Shown: positions 2,319 to 7,998, numbered from the stretch's first letter. The stretch is 54,848 nucleotides of DNA from a virus (IMGVR_UViG_3300036852_000068:1-54848), one strand, 5' to 3'. Translations and numbers: made by a program. The notes: generated by a model not told the origin, from the letters alone.

Positions 2319-2576
2319 ATGGACGCATCGCAACTTAGAGAACTAGCAACCAACGCACTTACCGGCTACTGGCCTGCGCATCTTGGTCTGAAAACCGACG
2401 CTGAGCGGATTGAGTATTTGGCGCGGTGTATTGAGACAGCGGCAGACGAAATCCAGCAAGGCGATGAAGCCTTTGAGCAGGTGACTGAACTCGAAACAAA
2501 AACTGAGCGGCTACAGAATGAGATTGACGAGCAAGCCGCTGAAATCGAATCGCTGAAGGCTCGAAAGGAAGGCTGA
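2319..2576 (+). CDS. Hypothetical coiled-coil protein
   Basis: GAGG RBS; acidic coiled-coil C-terminus; abuts the clamp gene. Confidence 0.65.
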   Translation: MDASQLRELATNALTGYWPAHLGLKTDAERIEYLARCIETAADEIQQGDEAFEQVTELETKTERLQNEIDEQAAEIESLKARKEG

Positions 2577-3670
2577 TGTTCACTGCCACCTCTGCCAATC
2601 TCTCCCGCGCCCTCTCGCTGGTGCTGGCCAGCGCGGAGGTCAAGGGAACCATGCCAGTGCTGGCCTACGTTCTGTTCGAAGCAAAGGACGGCCTGCTCAA
2701 GCTCACTGCTACTGACATTGACTCAACTATTGAAACGCAAATTGAGACGGTAGAGTGCGGTGATGACTTCGCATGGTGCGTGCCGGGTAAGCCGCTTTAT
2801 GATCTAGTCCGCCTGCTCACCGCCGACGTAACCCTGCTGGAGTTCAAAGGCCGTATCGCCGTTAGGTCAGGCGACGCCCAGCACTTGCTCCCGATGCTGC
2901 CTGCTGAGCATTTCCCGGCCATAGAAGCCGCCCAAACGGTCATAGGCGACCTAGACGGCGTCTTGCTCTCTAAAATGCTTTCTACGGCCATGCTGGGCGC
3001 GGAAACCAACCCTAATGGGGTTGATTGGCAGAAGAATGTTGAGGTAATCGGTAAAGACGGTCAATTAACCATTACCGGGTGTTCATCTGCTCAGATTTCC
3101 AGTGTGGCGGCTAAGTTCAATGGCGAGGTTGAGGCGGTAATCCCACAGCGAGCGGCAACGATCCTTGCGGCCTTTGCTGCTGGTAATGAATCCGTTTCTA
3201 TTGCCTGTTCTAACAACCTACTGACCCTGCGATCTGAAACCGGCGCAGCACATTCGCGGTTATCAGCACTAAGGATGGCCGATTGGCGCATGTTGATTCA
3301 GTCCGACTATCAGCACTCTATTGAGCTTAATCCTGAAGCCGCCTTACCCGCCCTCCGTCGTGCTCTGCTAGCATCGGGCAGTGGTGCGGTCAATATCCGG
3401 TTAGGCAACGGGCAGATGGTTGTGACCGCAACTAACGCCGATGATGGCCGGGAGGGAACCGAAGTATCAACAGTCAACGCCCCTACGCTCAACGGCAGCA
3501 CCTATGATCTTCGCTTGCTGGCCGCCCAACTAATCGACTACCTGCGCCTCTGCGACTCCCCGATTCTCTGGCATATCAACGAAGGTAATAGTTCGCTATT
3601 ATTCACCTTGAAAGAGCCAAAGGACTTCGAGTGGCGGTATATTCAGACGACGTTGAGGTTGCAGGGGTGA
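2576..3670 (+). CDS. dnaN: DNA polymerase III beta sliding clamp homologue (divergent)
   Basis: 364 aa. N-terminus 'PVLAYVLFEAKDGLLKLTATDID', 'VPGKPLYDLVRLL' and 'LPAEHFP' match the beta-clamp pattern. Confidence 0.8.
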   Translation: MFTATSANLSRALSLVLASAEVKGTMPVLAYVLFEAKDGLLKLTATDIDSTIETQIETVECGDDFAWCVPGKPLYDLVRLLTADVTLLEFKGRIAVRSGDAQHLLPMLPAEHFPAIEAAQTVIGDLDGVLLSKMLSTAMLGAETNPNGVDWQKNVEVIGKDGQLTITGCSSAQISSVAAKFNGEVEAVIPQRAATILAAFAAGNESVSIACSNNLLTLRSETGAAHSRLSALRMADWRMLIQSDYQHSIELNPEAALPALRRALLASGSGAVNIRLGNGQMVVTATNADDGREGTEVSTVNAPTLNGSTYDLRLLAAQLIDYLRLCDSPILWHINEGNSSLLFTLKEPKDFEWRYIQTTLRLQG

Positions 3671-4404
3671 CGCCATATTACTCAGAAGCGGGGATTGAAA
3701 TCTGGCTGGGTGATTGCCGTGAAATATGGCCGACCTTGGGAGAGATCGATCTAGTCTGTACCGACCCGCCATTTGAAGCTGAGGCTCATACGCCAATGCG
3801 ACGAACCAACAGGAGTATTCAAACAAAAGAAAACGTCGCTATGCCGTTTGCGCCGATTACGGAAGAATTGCGTGGCTGGTTGACTAACATTCAATGTAAC
3901 TGGCTCTTAGCATTCTGCCAAGCCGAAGCCGTTAGTATTTACCAAGTGTCTCTGGGATTAAAATATCGTCGCCCTATGGTCTGGGTTAAGCCTGACTCAG
4001 CACCGCAATTCACCGGGGATCGTCCGGCGATGGGTTATGAGTCTATCGTCTGCGCGTGGATGGCAGAAGGTAAGAGTCGCTGGAACGGTGGCGGGCGGCG
4101 CGGGGTGTTCACGTACAGCGTCAATGGTTACGAACGATGGCATCCAACACAAAAACCGTTACCGCTGATGACGGAACTAATCTCACTGTTCAGCTTGGGC
4201 GGGGTGATATGCGACCCCTTCCTCGGTAGTGGTACCACTCTCCTCGCTGCCAAACAACTGCGCCGCAAGGCTGTAGGGATCGAAATTGAGGAACGTTATT
4301 GTGAAATCGCAGCTAAAAGATTAATGAATTGTCCTGAGCCGTTGGCATATGCGCCGATAGCGCAAGAGAAGGTTGAACCTGTTTCGCTGTTTGCTGCTGA
4401 GTGA
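3667..4404 (+). CDS. Orphan DNA methyltransferase 1 (N6A/N4C, beta class)
   Basis: TDPPF catalytic motif, HPTQKP, DPFLGSGTT SAM-binding motif, GIEIEERY; GTG start overlapping the clamp stop (GTGA). Confidence 0.9.
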   Translation: MTPYYSEAGIEIWLGDCREIWPTLGEIDLVCTDPPFEAEAHTPMRRTNRSIQTKENVAMPFAPITEELRGWLTNIQCNWLLAFCQAEAVSIYQVSLGLKYRRPMVWVKPDSAPQFTGDRPAMGYESIVCAWMAEGKSRWNGGGRRGVFTYSVNGYERWHPTQKPLPLMTELISLFSLGGVICDPFLGSGTTLLAAKQLRRKAVGIEIEERYCEIAAKRLMNCPEPLAYAPIAQEKVEPVSLFAAE

Positions 4405-4411
4405 TCACTGA

Positions 4412-5932
4412 ATGGAACCTTACTACCAAGACGAGTCAATAACGATATTCAGCGCGAGTTGTCTTAATGCGCTTCCGTATCTTGCTGATTGCTCCGTTGA
4501 TTCAGTCGTTACCGATCCGCCTTACGAGTTGGGATTCATGGGTAAGTCTTGGGATCGCTCTGGCATCGCTTACAACGTCGAAGTCTGGAAAGAATGTTTG
4601 CGCGTCTTGAAGCCCGGTGGACATCTTCTCGCCTTCGGAGGATCGCGTACTTACCACCGATTAGCTTGCGCGATTGAAGATGCAGGGTTTGAGATTCGGG
4701 ATCAAATTCAATGGATTTACGGCTCAGGATTTCCCAAAAGTTTAGACGTTAGCAAGGCAATTGACGCGGCAGCGGGCGCAGAACGGGGAGTAATCGGACG
4801 AGCTAAGGGAGCGGCGTCAAGTCAGACGCATAGCCTCGGCGTGTTTGCCCCTTCTTATGACGCGACCGCTCCCGCAACCGAAGAAGCAAAGCAATGGAGC
4901 GGTTGGGGCACAGCATTGAAGCCAAGCCATGAGCCAATAATATGGGCTCGTAAACCCTTGACTCCTGTTCTTATTGAGAGTAAACTAGTAGCAGAAACCC
5001 AGCATTTAATCGGGAGCCTGCTATGCCAATTACTATCAAGTGCGAACAGTGCGGAAGTGATTTTAGCGTCAAGCCCAAGCGTGTCAGGCGAGGCGTCCGC
5101 TTCTGCTCTACTGCTTGCCGCCGTGCTTCGTGGGCCATCGTTAGACGGGTGGTGCGAGCGGATGGCTACGTGCAGCTCACAGGAAACGGTCTCAACCTGC
5201 TTGAGCATCGCGTCGTCATGGAACGACATCTTGGACACGCTCTTGAATCGTGGGAGCAGGTTCACCACCGAAACCATAATCGGTCTGACAACCGCATTAA
5301 AAACCTTGAACTCTTATCTATCGGAGATCATGCCCGCGAGCATCATCCGGGACGCGTCCCTTCCTGTTGGCGAGTTGCTAAATGTAGAGGTTGCGGAAAG
5401 CAATTTGAGCGACGGGCCAAAGAGCTTGAGGCTCACCCAAGAGCATACTGCTCGCGTACTTGCTTCGTTACGTCAGGTGCTCACATCTGCCAACGGTGCG
5501 GAAGCCGGTTTCACGGCGGCGGCTCGCGTCGCAAATTCTGCTCTACGATCTGCTATCACACATCTCGAAGAAAGCCTGCCGCCTGAAACTCGCCCCGCAC
5601 ACGAGCCGATTGTGTTAGCTCGTAAGCCTCTTATCGGAACCGTCGCAGAGAACGTCTTACAGCACGGAACGGGCGGGTTGAATGTTGATGGATGCAGGAT
5701 CGAAACCGTTGACGTGTATTCGTATCCAAACGGCCCCGGCGGTAAATCACACCACTACAGCAGTGACAAACGCAGCGTTGAAGTTCGCCCTAATCCCGCC
5801 GAGAGCAATCCGTTAGGCCGCTGGCCCGCAAACGTGATTCTGTCCTATCCCGAAGATGAATACGAACTTTGCGCAAGTGTGACCGCAGAGCAAAAGAAAG
5901 AACTGTTTCAGTGGCTTTATGAGAACGCCTAA
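4412..5932 (+). CDS. DNA methyltransferase 2, N-terminal piece (contains a 224-aa in-frame insertion overprinting HNH-1)
   Basis: VTDPPYELGFMGKSWD, RVLKPGGHLLAF, WIYGSGFPKS, GWGTALKP, HEPIxxARKPL (twice), GRWPANVIL. Confidence 0.9.
   Translation: MEPYYQDESITIFSASCLNALPYLADCSVDSVVTDPPYELGFMGKSWDRSGIAYNVEVWKECLRVLKPGGHLLAFGGSRTYHRLACAIEDAGFEIRDQIQWIYGSGFPKSLDVSKAIDAAAGAERGVIGRAKGAASSQTHSLGVFAPSYDATAPATEEAKQWSGWGTALKPSHEPIIWARKPLTPVLIESKLVAETQHLIGSLLCQLLSSANSAEVILASSPSVSGEASASALLLAAVLRGPSLDGWCERMATCSSQETVSTCLSIASSWNDILDTLLNRGSRFTTETIIGLTTALKTLNSYLSEIMPASIIRDASLPVGELLNVEVAESNLSDGPKSLRLTQEHTARVLASLRQVLTSANGAEAGFTAAARVANSALRSAITHLEESLPPETRPAHEPIVLARKPLIGTVAENVLQHGTGGLNVDGCRIETVDVYSYPNGPGGKSHHYSSDKRSVEVRPNPAESNPLGRWPANVILSYPEDEYELCASVTAEQKKELFQWLYENA
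4958..4986 (+). promoter_or_regulatory. Internal sigma70-type promoter for HNH-1
   Basis: TTGACT-17 bp-TAAACT inside the insertion, followed by GGGAG RBS and ATG at 5023. Confidence 0.6.
5023..5586 (+). CDS. HNH homing endonuclease 1, overprinted in an alternative frame inside the methyltransferase
   Basis: EHRVVMERHLG..L...EQVHHRNHNRSDNRIKNLEL (HNH_3 type) plus three CxxC...(F/Y)CSxxC zinc-finger repeats; own RBS. Confidence 0.9.
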   Translation: MPITIKCEQCGSDFSVKPKRVRRGVRFCSTACRRASWAIVRRVVRADGYVQLTGNGLNLLEHRVVMERHLGHALESWEQVHHRNHNRSDNRIKNLELLSIGDHAREHHPGRVPSCWRVAKCRGCGKQFERRAKELEAHPRAYCSRTCFVTSGAHICQRCGSRFHGGGSRRKFCSTICYHTSRRKPAA

Positions 5933-6548
5933 TTGCAAATGCTTGGTCTGTGATAAGCCGCTTTATCGCCGTCCGTATGAGTTGGCGAAAGTGAGGCATG
6001 TTGCGTGTATGACGCACAGAGCCGAAGCACAGAAGATTTCAGGTATCACCGAAGCGCAACGAGCGGGGCTATCACGCGGCAGGGTGAAGGGCGATAACCG
6101 CCGGACGGGTTGCAAGCAAAGCGAAGCGATGAAGCAAAAAGTTTCAGAAGCGAACCGAAAGTATTGGGCGTCACACCCTGACGAACTCGCCGCCAGAGGC
6201 GAGCAGATGCGCGGAGAGAATCACTACAAATGGAAAGGCGGCGCGACAAAACTCAACATCGCAATCCGCCAGATGAATGAAAACCGAAAATGGATGGACG
6301 CGGTGAAGGAAAGAGACGGCGGCAAATGCGTTCGCTGCGGTAGTGCCGATCAAGTGGAAAGCCATCACATTATCGAACTCGTGATGCTGATCGAACTTTA
6401 TGAAGTAAAGACGCGAGATGAAGCACGCGGCATCACGGCATTTTGGGATTTAGACAACGGCCAAACACTTTGCCAGCGATGCCACTACGCGCATCACGGG
6501 AGAACCTATCGTGAGGATCGAAGAGAAAACCTACAACTTGCTGCCTAG
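5919..6548 (+). CDS. HNH homing endonuclease 2, splitting the methyltransferase gene
   Basis: NUMOD3-like KQSEAMKQKVSEAN, GENHYKWKGG, RDGGKCVRCG...ESHHI...NGQTLCQRCH. Confidence 0.9.
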   Translation: MRTPNCKCLVCDKPLYRRPYELAKVRHVACMTHRAEAQKISGITEAQRAGLSRGRVKGDNRRTGCKQSEAMKQKVSEANRKYWASHPDELAARGEQMRGENHYKWKGGATKLNIAIRQMNENRKWMDAVKERDGGKCVRCGSADQVESHHIIELVMLIELYEVKTRDEARGITAFWDLDNGQTLCQRCHYAHHGRTYREDRRENLQLAA

Positions 6549-7299
6549 CCATCTGAAAGCCCTGTTTCGGAAGCTGCCGAACCATGGATCGGATGAAGTG
6601 CTGGCGGGGTTTCCTGAGACAGGGATAAGTGCAGGCGGCGGCATGAAAGACTTACAAAAGGGCAAGTTGTTTCAGGGCGAAACTAATCCCAATATCACCA
6701 ACACGTCGGGATTTGGCGATTTCGGTTCTGCAGCCCGTTTCTTCTTTTGCGCGAAAGCCTCTCAAGAAGAACGCAATGCAGGACTCAGTGGCGGCGTTCA
6801 ATTGCTTGACTGTGCTGCGCTAGTTTGCTACCCTTCCCGATCATGGGTATTCGCGGCCCTCAATCAAAGGCTCCTGGAGGATACGGTAGCATTAGCAAAA
6901 AAGGCTACCGCCGAATCTATGATCCAAACGAGCGAAGGTTTCGTATGGAGCATGTGCTTGTGTGGGAGTCCTACAACGGACATATTCCACCCGGCTATCA
7001 AATCCATCATCGAAACGGAAACAAAATTGATAACGAAATTGGAAACTTGGAACTCCTCAGCCCAACCGCACACAAACGGCTGCATGGCGGCTGCGTTTGG
7101 CGTGACGGCCAATGGCGGAAACCTTGCAAGCTATGCGGAATTTCAAAGCCCATTAATGCGTCAAACTGGTATCTCAGCAAAGAAGGATGGCCGCTATATG
7201 GTCGATGCCGACCTTGCCACGTCAATAAAGTCGTGGCTGACAAGCGCGCCCGTAGGAGGCGGGCAAAGGATGGGAGTGCGTAATTCCCATCCTACGTGA
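6511..7299 (+). CDS. DNA methyltransferase 2, middle piece (in-frame insertion overprinting HNH-3)
   Basis: GGGAG RBS and GTG start; HGSDEVLAGFP, GSAARFFFCAKASQEERNAGL ... RNSHPT then TGA. Confidence 0.8.
   Translation: MRIEEKTYNLLPSHLKALFRKLPNHGSDEVLAGFPETGISAGGGMKDLQKGKLFQGETNPNITNTSGFGDFGSAARFFFCAKASQEERNAGLSGGVQLLDCAALVCYPSRSWVFAALNQRLLEDTVALAKKATAESMIQTSEGFVWSMCLCGSPTTDIFHPAIKSIIETETKLITKLETWNSSAQPHTNGCMAAAFGVTANGGNLASYAEFQSPLMRQTGISAKKDGRYMVDADLATSIKSWLTSAPVGGGQRMGVRNSHPT
6806..6834 (+). promoter_or_regulatory. Internal leaderless promoter for HNH-3
   Basis: TTGACT-17 bp-TACCCT with extended -10 TG; ATG 8 nt downstream at 6843. Confidence 0.55.
6843..7283 (+). CDS. HNH homing endonuclease 3, overprinted in an alternative frame
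   Basis: EHVLVWESYNGHIPPGYQIHHRNGNKIDNEIGNLELL plus C-terminal CxxC...CxxC. Confidence 0.9.
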   Translation: MGIRGPQSKAPGGYGSISKKGYRRIYDPNERRFRMEHVLVWESYNGHIPPGYQIHHRNGNKIDNEIGNLELLSPTAHKRLHGGCVWRDGQWRKPCKLCGISKPINASNWYLSKEGWPLYGRCRPCHVNKVVADKRARRRRAKDGSA

Positions 7300-7569
7300 A
7301 CAGTCAAGCCTCTAGCCTTAATGCAATACCTAATCAAACTCATTACTCTACCAAACGGAATAGTGCTCGACCCGTTTGCCGGATCAGGCAGCACGCTTAT
7401 AGCAGCAAAGCAGTTAGGGTATAAAGCTATTGGGATTGAGAAAGAGGAAGAATATTGCGCTATCGCCCAGCATCGGCTGCTAAATCTTCCTGAGCCACTA
7501 ACCTACGATGAGCCGATTAAGCCTGCTAAGCCAGCGCGGATAGTTGAGCAACCGGAGTCGCTATTTTGA
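7300..7569 (+). CDS. DNA methyltransferase 2, C-terminal SAM-binding piece (same frame as 6511..7299, after the TGA)
   Basis: TVKPLALMQYLIKLIT..NGIVLDPFAGSGSTLIAA..GIEKEEEY; no RBS before ATG 7321. Confidence 0.8.
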   Translation, partial: TVKPLALMQYLIKLITLPNGIVLDPFAGSGSTLIAAKQLGYKAIGIEKEEEYCAIAQHRLLNLPEPLTYDEPIKPAKPARIVEQPESLF

Positions 7570-7641
7570 TTACAATCAAAGCCCAATTCTTTTCCGTCAA
7601 CGGCTACCGGCCGCTCGCGCGTATGAAAGGATACAACACCT

Positions 7642-7998
7642 ATGCGACCTATACGCTTGTATGTTTCCGGCCCAATGACCGGCTATCTTGATTTTAACTA
7701 TCCCACATTCGAATCAGCCACCAAGCAGTTACGCGCCGCAGGCTATGAAGTTGTTAGTCCGCATGAGTTGGTAACGGATACTACTCTTGATTGGAAAGAA
7801 TGCATGAAGGTAGATATTCGCGCGCTACTAGATTGTGAAGGCATCGCTACTTTAGAGGGTTGTGAGAAGTCAAAGGGTGCAACACTTGAGAATACGATTG
7901 CCGCCGCAATGGGAATGGAAATTAGGACATTAGCCGACTGGTTGGATAAAGCTATCGAAATACAGCACAAAGCGGCACAGCGGCGAACTGGACTATAG
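7642..7998 (+). CDS. DUF4406-family protein (nucleoside deoxyribosyltransferase-like fold)
   Basis: YVSGPMTG..DFNYPTF...GYEVVSP...CM..DI..LLDC.......EKSKGATLE pattern. Confidence 0.8.
   Translation: MRPIRLYVSGPMTGYLDFNYPTFESATKQLRAAGYEVVSPHELVTDTTLDWKECMKVDIRALLDCEGIATLEGCEKSKGATLENTIAAAMGMEIRTLADWLDKAIEIQHKAAQRRTGL

Follow-up and report, generated by a model that had tools for sequence, protein, structure and literature searches.

Conserved terminal peptides beside an HNH endonuclease gene that splits a viral DNA methyltransferase: candidate assembly peptides for the enzyme halves

The NrdA-a/MobE/NrdA-b arrangement of phage Aeh1 was reportedly described by Friedrich et al. in 2007. In the portion of Crona et al. 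2011 (PMC3045599) drawn on here, the C- and N-terminal tails that came from the mobE insertion are essential for the activity of Aeh1 NrdA and are interaction domains through which the large subunit is assembled. The same portion suggests that such tails arrived with the endonuclease, would neutralize the split and are possibly common, and it predicts that further cases will be hard to detect because the tails would not be conserved. A second precedent is T4/T6 topoisomerase II, for which the corresponding portion of a 2024 cryo-electron microscopy study (PMC11461880) describes an insertion of ∼70 aa common to gp39 and gp60 as a pendant on the exterior; this TOPRIM insertion is termed an “assembly bracket” or “assembly chaperone,” a role proposed from the fused structure. 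Here we describe a locus of this kind in IMGVR_UViG_3300036852_000068:1-54848, a 54.8-kb IMG/VR virus sequence (44% complete by CheckV estimate) that we call the window throughout, meaning all 54,848 nt of it. A gene for a β-class N6/N4 DNA methyltransferase (hereafter methylase) is divided by a free-standing HNH endonuclease gene, and the peptides next to the break, a tail that closes the upstream fragment and a head that opens the downstream one, belong to the inserted cassette. Judging from sequence comparison and by analogy with Aeh1, we put the probability that tail and head are assembly peptides for the split enzyme at roughly 0.6.

The tail–HNH–head cassette and its family

The methylase gene lies in pieces over 3.2 kb of the plus strand (4412–7569). 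PF01555 matches its two ends, with profile positions 1–107 at the start and 171–220 at the end, and the DPPY motif in the N-terminal part together with the FxGxG S-adenosylmethionine (AdoMet) motif in the C-terminal part assign it to the β class. Three HNH genes interrupt it (Table 1), and the second of these, insert 2, is identified by PF01844 (23.7 bits, cut-off 21.4; E = 5.5e-5) and by PHROG 589, HNH endonuclease (2.4e-12). Upstream of insert 2 the N fragment reads GRWPANVILS, continues into the 28-aa tail and stops at TAA 5930–5932, so that its open reading frame (ORF) overlaps the HNH ORF by 14 nt, of which the tail itself contributes only its last 11 nt. The HNH ORF in turn overlaps the downstream ORF by 38 nt; the latter begins at GTG 6511, 8 nt after a GGGAG sequence, and HGSDEVLAGFP resumes directly after the head. 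The N-fragment, HNH and middle-fragment ORFs occupy three different frames. In most of 18 loci inspected by eye, and uncounted, a GGAGG-, GGGAG- or GGAAGG-like run likewise stands ∼6–12 nt ahead of the head start. A sequence-only reading of this window had proposed the order of tail, HNH gene and head, with all ORFs overlapping and a GGGAG site belonging to the head, and the ORFs and sequence bear this out. The same reading called the peptides foreign, which agrees with their absence from relatives, but the foreign stretch, judged against them, starts two codons earlier than it supposed and extends from LS (5840) through LPN (6582); insert 2 with its flanks measures ∼740 nt. Residue counts confirm an acidic tail (7 acidic, 2 basic) and a basic head (5 basic, 2 acidic), while the amphipathic character claimed for both is moderate only, the helical hydrophobic moment being reached by 121/2000 shuffles of the tail and 35/2000 of the head.

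Recurrence of this tail and head in 83 distinct loci is far beyond chance. In IMG/VR, all seven HNH homologues found (47–77% identity) sit at the same methylase site with conserved tail and head, and HNH homologues at that site span 40–77% identity overall. Scans with the tail alignment gave 25 IMG/VR, 14 GTDB species-genome and 80 metagenome loci. The tail core is held by 104 of the scanned loci, the 83 distinct ones among them, and the other 15 matched the native GRWPAN..SYPE part only. Among the distinct loci, 67 combine a split gene and a head with a match to 185 or more of the 209 HNH residues, 5 are split with a partly matched HNH and a head, 4 are split with a head and either no HNH or a remnant only, 6 end with the contig ahead of the head, and 1 (L200) has both peptides in one ORF. 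Wherever a terminal tail is followed by enough downstream DNA, the head is found (76/76 distinct loci), and a reverse scan with the head alignment returned HNH and a terminal tail in 17/17 loci, 7 of them new contigs. At E ≤ 1e-3, 314 of 1.84 billion cluster representatives matched the tail profile; in the best 150 of these, the match ends no more than 3 residues from the C terminus in 144, is followed by 4–16 residues in 5 and is internal in 1 (P0149). Two points raised in the sequence-only reading, co-occurrence at this site and conservation among split homologues, come out in its favor: tail and head always occur together, including at loci with a decayed HNH gene, and are kept across the family. 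We found no publication on a methyltransferase split by a homing endonuclease in the limited literature that we covered.

Related methylases with an unoccupied site show what the cassette comprises. We took the best 80 of 597 IMG/VR loci that encode relatives of the N-terminal 193 aa (53–71% identity), and in these nearest relatives the tail and head hidden Markov models (HMMs) had no match (0/80). The GRWPAN motif is present in 74 of the 80, usually reading GRWPANxIHDGS[DE]EV, and is followed by the tail in none. The nearest unsplit relatives, L038 and L039, read GRWPANVI and then HDGSDEVLAGFP with nothing in between, and the set L035–L117 includes 60 full-length unsplit methylase ORFs; the insertion point lies between the codons for GRWPANVI and (H)DGSDEV. 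On an N-domain tree (FastTree, 113 rows, 96 columns), the 24 split rows are scattered among unoccupied-site rows, with 20 changes of the split state compared with a shuffled mean of 22.0 (71/500 shuffles as low) and at least 4 changes forced by starred branches. The filled loci L023 and L024 adjoin the unoccupied L109 on very short branches. Between L023 and L109, DNA identity is 87–91% in conserved blocks, and ∼736 nt encoding tail, HNH and head stand opposite ∼7 nt. Methylases with different flanks at this point, L033 (a Cys-rich variant) and L037, contain the module as well. Related methylases therefore differ by possession or lack of the whole cassette, tail and head included, and the proposal that the peptides belong to the HNH cassette and not to the methylase holds, with none of the 80 relatives carrying them and near-identical N-domains found with and without the cassette. 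Two other origins for the peptides found no support. For native methylase sequence hidden in the tail, the tblastn matches in cultured phages that extended into the tail proved to align the native LDE..AA..LD site variant or the FYCAKAS motif; for descent of both peptides from a single motif, suggested when MAFFT once aligned the two, hhalign gave a probability of 0.8% over 8 columns.

Role of the peptides and competing explanations

The reading that we prefer supposes that a mobile cassette, made up of a tail-coding segment, the HNH gene and a head-coding segment, inserted into a phage β-class methyltransferase gene. Translation of the upstream piece would run on into the cassette, adding an acidic tail of 28–30 aa with one predicted amphipathic helix, and the N-fragment stop within the first HNH codons would allow coupled translation of the endonuclease. 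The downstream piece would start from a ribosome site inside the last HNH codons and so gain a mostly basic head of ∼21–24 aa with two short predicted helices. Both peptides may then pack as a small helical bracket outside the methylase and help the halves to assemble or to stay joined, and the insertion would be nearly neutral for the phage, as with the MobE-derived tails found on NrdA-a and NrdA-b. Purifying selection on the peptides and their persistence after loss of the HNH gene lend indirect support to a role in assembly or activity.

Five lineages with a degraded HNH gene remain split and carry both peptides, with spacers of 41, 81, 227, 298 and 453 nt. In the L027 group (L027–L030, L167 and L180) the 41-nt spacer still reads the first four and the last few HNH codons. 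L185 (227-nt spacer), L154 (an internal HNH deletion) and L210 (an HNH gene without a start) are split with tail and head intact, and L207 (81-nt spacer) has a damaged head start, the other four of the five lineages being intact. Tail and head thus outlive the HNH gene. In three further methylases all or part of the module lies within one chain. P0149 (448 aa) is a methylase whose single chain runs from the tail through an 8-residue linker into the head; L217, an intact methylase of 454 aa, has its head (E = 3.6e-11) right behind a helix that resembles a diverged tail but escapes the tail-core HMM; and L200 has both peptides in one complicated ORF. Because the P0149 linker resembles the HNH 3′ end read in the frame of the head, as in the split loci, P0149 looks like a secondary fusion that followed HNH deletion. 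A word-indexed search among 207 candidates found no second protein spanning both peptides. The sequence-only reading had named contiguity in unsplit methylases as an outcome that would refute it, and such contiguity does occur, in P0149 and L200 and for the head only in L217, but rarely: in 1 of the 150 best representatives and 1 of the 83 distinct loci.

These rare forms bear on an alternative in which tail and head were once one native helical subdomain of a single methylase lineage, later bisected by the HNH gene. The halves would then have been dragged along by co-conversion during homing and would reassociate as the former domain, with nothing invented by the element. We consider this unlikely. 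It would account for P0149 and L200, for the head of L217, which is preceded by a TYPEDRY stretch and a helix with neither a linker nor a visible HNH trace, and for the placement of P0149, L217 and L035 (whose only retained parts are the flanks SYPEDEY and LPNPG) in one N-domain clade of 16 rows with starred support of 97. That clade, however, also contains 6 unoccupied-site and 3 split rows, contiguous forms are as scarce as stated above, with P0149 alone among the 207 candidates, its linker matches the HNH 3′ end in the head-frame reading of split loci, a sign of secondary fusion, and the tail-like part of L217 fails the tail-core HMM.

The contiguous forms also allowed the module to be modeled. 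In the AlphaFold2 model of P0149 (mean predicted local distance difference test score, pLDDT, 69.2), the tail is predicted as a helix at residues 260–273 and the head as helices at 287–292 and 295–303, with pLDDT 66–88 for the module blocks and <50 for the surrounding variable region; the model core matches CcrM 6PBD (E = 2.9e-13), M.BceJIV and M.RsrI. The L217 model places helices at 265–273, 283–287 and 291–297, with blocks at 68–80 and flanks <50. Cofolding of a 40-aa tail alignment with a 40-aa head alignment scored 0.17 (mark 0.32) and was counted neither way.

Selection on the peptides was assessed by pooled Nei–Gojobori comparison of 80 distinct tails and 68 distinct heads over codons that do not overlap the HNH gene. 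For the tail core, the ratio omega is 0.147 (77 pairs at 80–97% identity) or 0.176 (402 pairs at 70–97% identity), and for the head core 0.195 (24 pairs) or 0.174 (92 pairs); flanking native codons give 0.23–0.34. In the nonoverlapping cores the synonymous difference pS is 0.33–0.58 and the nonsynonymous difference pN is 0.06–0.17. Since synonymous change is frequent and nonsynonymous change low, selection acts on the peptide in its own frame and not on the DNA, and it is as peptides that both are subject to purifying selection. All 69 distinct heads have Pro12 and Phe19, and the distance from the start to Phe-x-Lys is always 21 residues. Mean net charge across the family is −3.6 for the tail and +1.4 for the head, and 47 of the 69 distinct pairs carry charges of opposite sign. 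Between tail and head (46 distinct loci), the top mutual information after average product correction (MI-APC) is 0.26, compared with 0.17–0.23 in four control region pairs. The top pair is tail column 31 and head column 14, where K opposite D or E accounts for 16 loci, E opposite H for 11 and E opposite E for 5; it looks charge complementary but is only a lead, phylogeny and column entropy being uncontrolled.

The substitution pattern argues against a further possibility, that the peptides contribute nothing to assembly and persist for the sake of the endonuclease: the DNA encoding them might serve it (translational coupling, the ribosome site and protection of a filled site from cleavage are examples), or the peptides might act on the HNH protein itself. 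Parts of the layout do fit such a service: the tail stop falls in HNH codons 4–5 and the last five tail codons, which overlap the HNH start, have a pS of 0.15–0.18; the ribosome site and first 12 codons of the head lie inside the HNH 3′ end; and the HNH start has no obvious Shine–Dalgarno sequence, which fits coupling to methylase translation. The pS and pN values of the cores, which place selection on the peptide, and the intact peptides in four of the five lineages with a deleted or truncated HNH gene make this explanation improbable.

It is similarly improbable that the methylase of the window is a dead gene riddled with three endonuclease genes, tail and head being functionless relics in this copy. 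The crowding of three HNH genes into a 3.2-kb gene would suggest it, as would the in-frame TGA at 7297–7299 after HPT, beyond which the first ATG (7321) would drop VKPLAL of a conserved motif; TGA is the commonest ordinary stop in the genome (16/39 ORFs), for which reason genome-wide TGA recoding was also rejected. Yet the methylase frame stays open across both other HNH genes (chance ∼1e-4 and 5e-4), every catalytic motif is present, and the family-level evidence is independent of this copy.

Removal of the cassette by splicing was rejected. A group I or II intron with an HNH ORF is contradicted by the absence of Rfam matches (no family at E ≤ 1 in 4300–7700) and by the lack of room for a ribozyme core around the ORF: only 73 nt separate the end of native sequence from the HNH start, no free sequence follows the HNH gene, and the HNH ORF fills nearly the whole gap between the methylase fragments. 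In a split intein, the N-intein comprises ∼80–100 aa or more from a Cys or Ser, and the C-intein ends in His-Asn followed by Cys, Ser or Thr. A split intein or fractured gene is rejected here because a 28-aa tail and a 24-aa head are too short, the frames differ and intein motifs are absent by eye: the tail region begins LSY, the head ends LPN, and the next residue is H, P, S or Y in 16 of 18 aligned loci. With no Rfam match, flanks that are translated and selected as protein, and differing frames, the product is splicing free. Because neither an intron nor an intein removes the cassette, the enzyme is produced as separate polypeptides.

Several points weigh against a role of tail and head as assembly peptides. 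Tail–head contact and activity of the split enzyme are what we infer here, and the methylase of the window may not be active, because of its two further HNH genes and the in-frame TGA at 7297–7299. The omega values come from short stretches and nonindependent pairs, the opposite-charge pattern fails in 22 of 69 pairs, and the N-domain tree is short and poorly resolved, with 63 of 110 inner branches open. Both AlphaFold models are moderate (mean pLDDT 69), and the module has nearly no alignment depth, because combined alignments of the fused protein with the N and C fragments misplaced the fragments and hence were unused for folding. Rare unsplit methylases (P0149, L200 and L217) bear all or part of the module, so it could be an older native subdomain. 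Finally, in the portion of Crona et al. cited above (PMC3045599), the Aeh1 tails are unneeded for basic fragment–fragment contact and needed for higher-order assembly. Because of this dispensability for fragment–fragment binding, a clasp between the halves may be the wrong detail.

Other inserts and a second methylase site

Table 1. Coordinates of the methylase pieces, the cassette and the other inserts in the window
Feature	Coordinates	Strand	Evidence or remarks
Methyltransferase N fragment, 506 aa	4412–5932	+	PF01555 E 3e-12, residues 29–182; DPPY; reads through insert 1
Insert 1, HNH_3 gene (different frame) within the open N-fragment frame	5023–5586	+	Pfam
Cassette-encoded C-terminal extension, LS plus the 28-aa tail (5846–5929)	5840–5929	+	Unoccupied-site relatives lack it
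Insert 2, free-standing HNH homing endonuclease gene, 209 aa	5919–6548	+	ATG start, TAG stop
GGGAG Shine–Dalgarno sequence of the downstream fragment	6498–6502	+	Within His-Gly-Arg codons close to the HNH gene end
Cassette-encoded N-terminal head, 24 aa	6511–6582	+	First 38 nt overlap the HNH 3′ end
Methyltransferase middle fragment, 262 aa	6511–7299	+	FFFCAKAS and HPT motifs; reads through insert 3; TGA right after HPT
Insert 3, HNH_3 gene (different frame) within the open middle-fragment frame	6825–7283	+	Pfam
Methyltransferase C-terminal piece, FAGSGST AdoMet motif	7321–7569	+	PF01555 E 1.3e-18, profile positions 171–220

At inserts 1 and 3 the methylase frame is open over 188 and 153 codons, respectively, the chance values quoted above being calculated from 4.8% stops per codon for that frame offset in the genome. 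Insert 1 is flanked by two copies of a HEPI..ARKPL motif, and the read-through architecture also occurs in L019, L031, L033 and L216. From sequence, inserts 1 and 3 look like a second way to neutralize an endonuclease insertion, in which the genes are overprinted and the host protein gains a long loop. An intein at the methylase site between YG and SGFPKS is present in L005 (∼980–1837) and L006 (∼794–1657); in place of the intein's endonuclease region there is an HNH gene that uses a different frame, and the intein frame is open over it.

The C-terminal piece continues in the frame of the middle fragment, past its TGA. This TGA stands directly after the HPT codons and is followed in the same frame by TVKPLAL; unsplit relatives read HPTVKP, so that 6 extra nt, including the stop, are present here. 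Split mycobacteriophage methylases (L246 and L249–L252, ∼2.2–3.0 kb) also stop right after HPT, with 5–7 extra nt and a frame change, and the break after HPT is thus a recurrent break point. Immediately upstream of the split gene lies a second, intact N6/N4 methyltransferase of 257 aa (3631–4404; PF01555, E = 4e-24), which overlaps the end of a 364-aa ORF (2576–3670) that is sliding-clamp-like by eye.

In Cluster-A-type mycobacteriophages (such as RitaG), a similarly styled tail closes a methylase N fragment, at a different insertion site just ahead of the HPT motif. Against the tail-core HMM the RitaG-type tail scores 11.7 bits, a value reached by 0/5000 shuffles, and it is followed by a head-like mini-ORF of 29–33 aa; this head scores 0.0 bits against the head-core HMM, which 375/5000 shuffles reach and which is not significant. 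Under the tentative adaptor idea set out below, a tail with three elements (Leu-Arg strand, Asp-Leu-Thr-Pro-Glu-Gln helix cap, amphipathic helix) and a head of the Met-Arg...Pro...Phe type would be common to both sites. TootsiePop represents the unsplit, unoccupied allele of the mycobacteriophage site. In Willsammy, ∼780 nt separate tail and head and contain, on the opposite strand, a 265-aa DUF559/Vsr-like endonuclease ORF (PF04480, 26.9 bits, cut-off 20.6); the gaps of L250 and L252 match it in size (780 and 774 nt), and the RitaG-type phages keep the peptides without any endonuclease. In the Willsammy locus (L212) this ORF runs from 423 to 1220 on the minus strand and has zinc-ribbon-like repeats, and the annotated plus-strand gp53 is probably a wrong call. 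We raise, tentatively and as less probable than not, the idea that tail and head form a portable split-and-rejoin adaptor that would flank two unrelated endonuclease families at two methyltransferase sites. If this were true, free-standing endonucleases could colonize coding sequence without an intron or intein by way of a reusable noncovalent rejoining module.

Relation to known split enzymes

Element-derived assembly tails have been shown for Aeh1 NrdA and proposed for T4 topoisomerase II, and a large conserved family of candidates is now available. It offers natural experiments in the form of filled and unoccupied alleles of near-identical methylases, splits that have lost the endonuclease and keep the peptides, and a re-fused form. 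These derivatives make it possible to study, by comparison and covariation, how the harm of a selfish insertion in coding sequence is removed. The related arrangement in RitaG and Willsammy, cultured phages of Mycobacterium smegmatis, is amenable to peptide deletion with methylation as the readout, and tail and head could serve as small natural tags for split-protein assembly.

The sequence-only reading cited Aeh1 nrdA/mobE as its precedent. This was correct but incomplete, as the role of the tails had already been demonstrated by experiment (PMC3045599, as excerpted). Its picture of a nonsplicing analogue of a split intein stands in a loose sense only, and the idea is that of the Aeh1 NrdA tails. 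Indeed, given Aeh1 NrdA and T4 topoisomerase II, the idea is an instance of a known mechanism. New here are the enzyme, how large and conserved the family is, and its natural derivatives. Among families of tails like these, it is the first that is both large and conserved.

The split-intein route is represented by the fractured genes of Dassa et al. 2009 (PMC2677866), in which, so far as the portion consulted describes them, gene halves surround a homing endonuclease gene and element-borne terminal peptides unite the halves, as would be the case here. Unlike those split inteins, the methylase peptides measure 22–30 and 21–24 aa and have neither an N-terminal Cys or Ser nor a C-terminal His-Asn with a following Cys, Ser or Thr, and the methylase halves, unlike split-intein products, would remain noncovalently associated. 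At the T4 gp39/MobA/gp60 locus, the insertion is missing from the unsplit T6 homologue and tolerates in-frame fusion (PMC11461880, in the portion cited above), like the methylase peptides. In contrast, the T4 cassette bears a 50-nt translational bypass element, to which we saw nothing similar in the methylase cassette, and enzyme and peptide sequences differ between the two systems.

A further counterpart is Aeh1 NrdA. In both, as far as the excerpt from Crona et al. covers the phage enzyme, a free-standing HNH-family endonuclease gene splits a conserved phage enzyme gene and overlaps the downstream fragment, and the fragments carry C- and N-terminal tails that are absent from unsplit homologues, have opposite net charge and involve no splicing. 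The enzyme here is, however, a DNA methyltransferase and not a ribonucleotide reductase, and the polarity is reversed relative to that excerpt, with an acidic tail and a basic head. Whereas the Aeh1 case is a single phage, the methylase peptides form a conserved family of 83 distinct loci and 314 cluster representatives, with HNH-decayed and re-fused derivatives. Function has been demonstrated for the Aeh1 NrdA tails, and by analogy the methylase tail and head would act in the same way.

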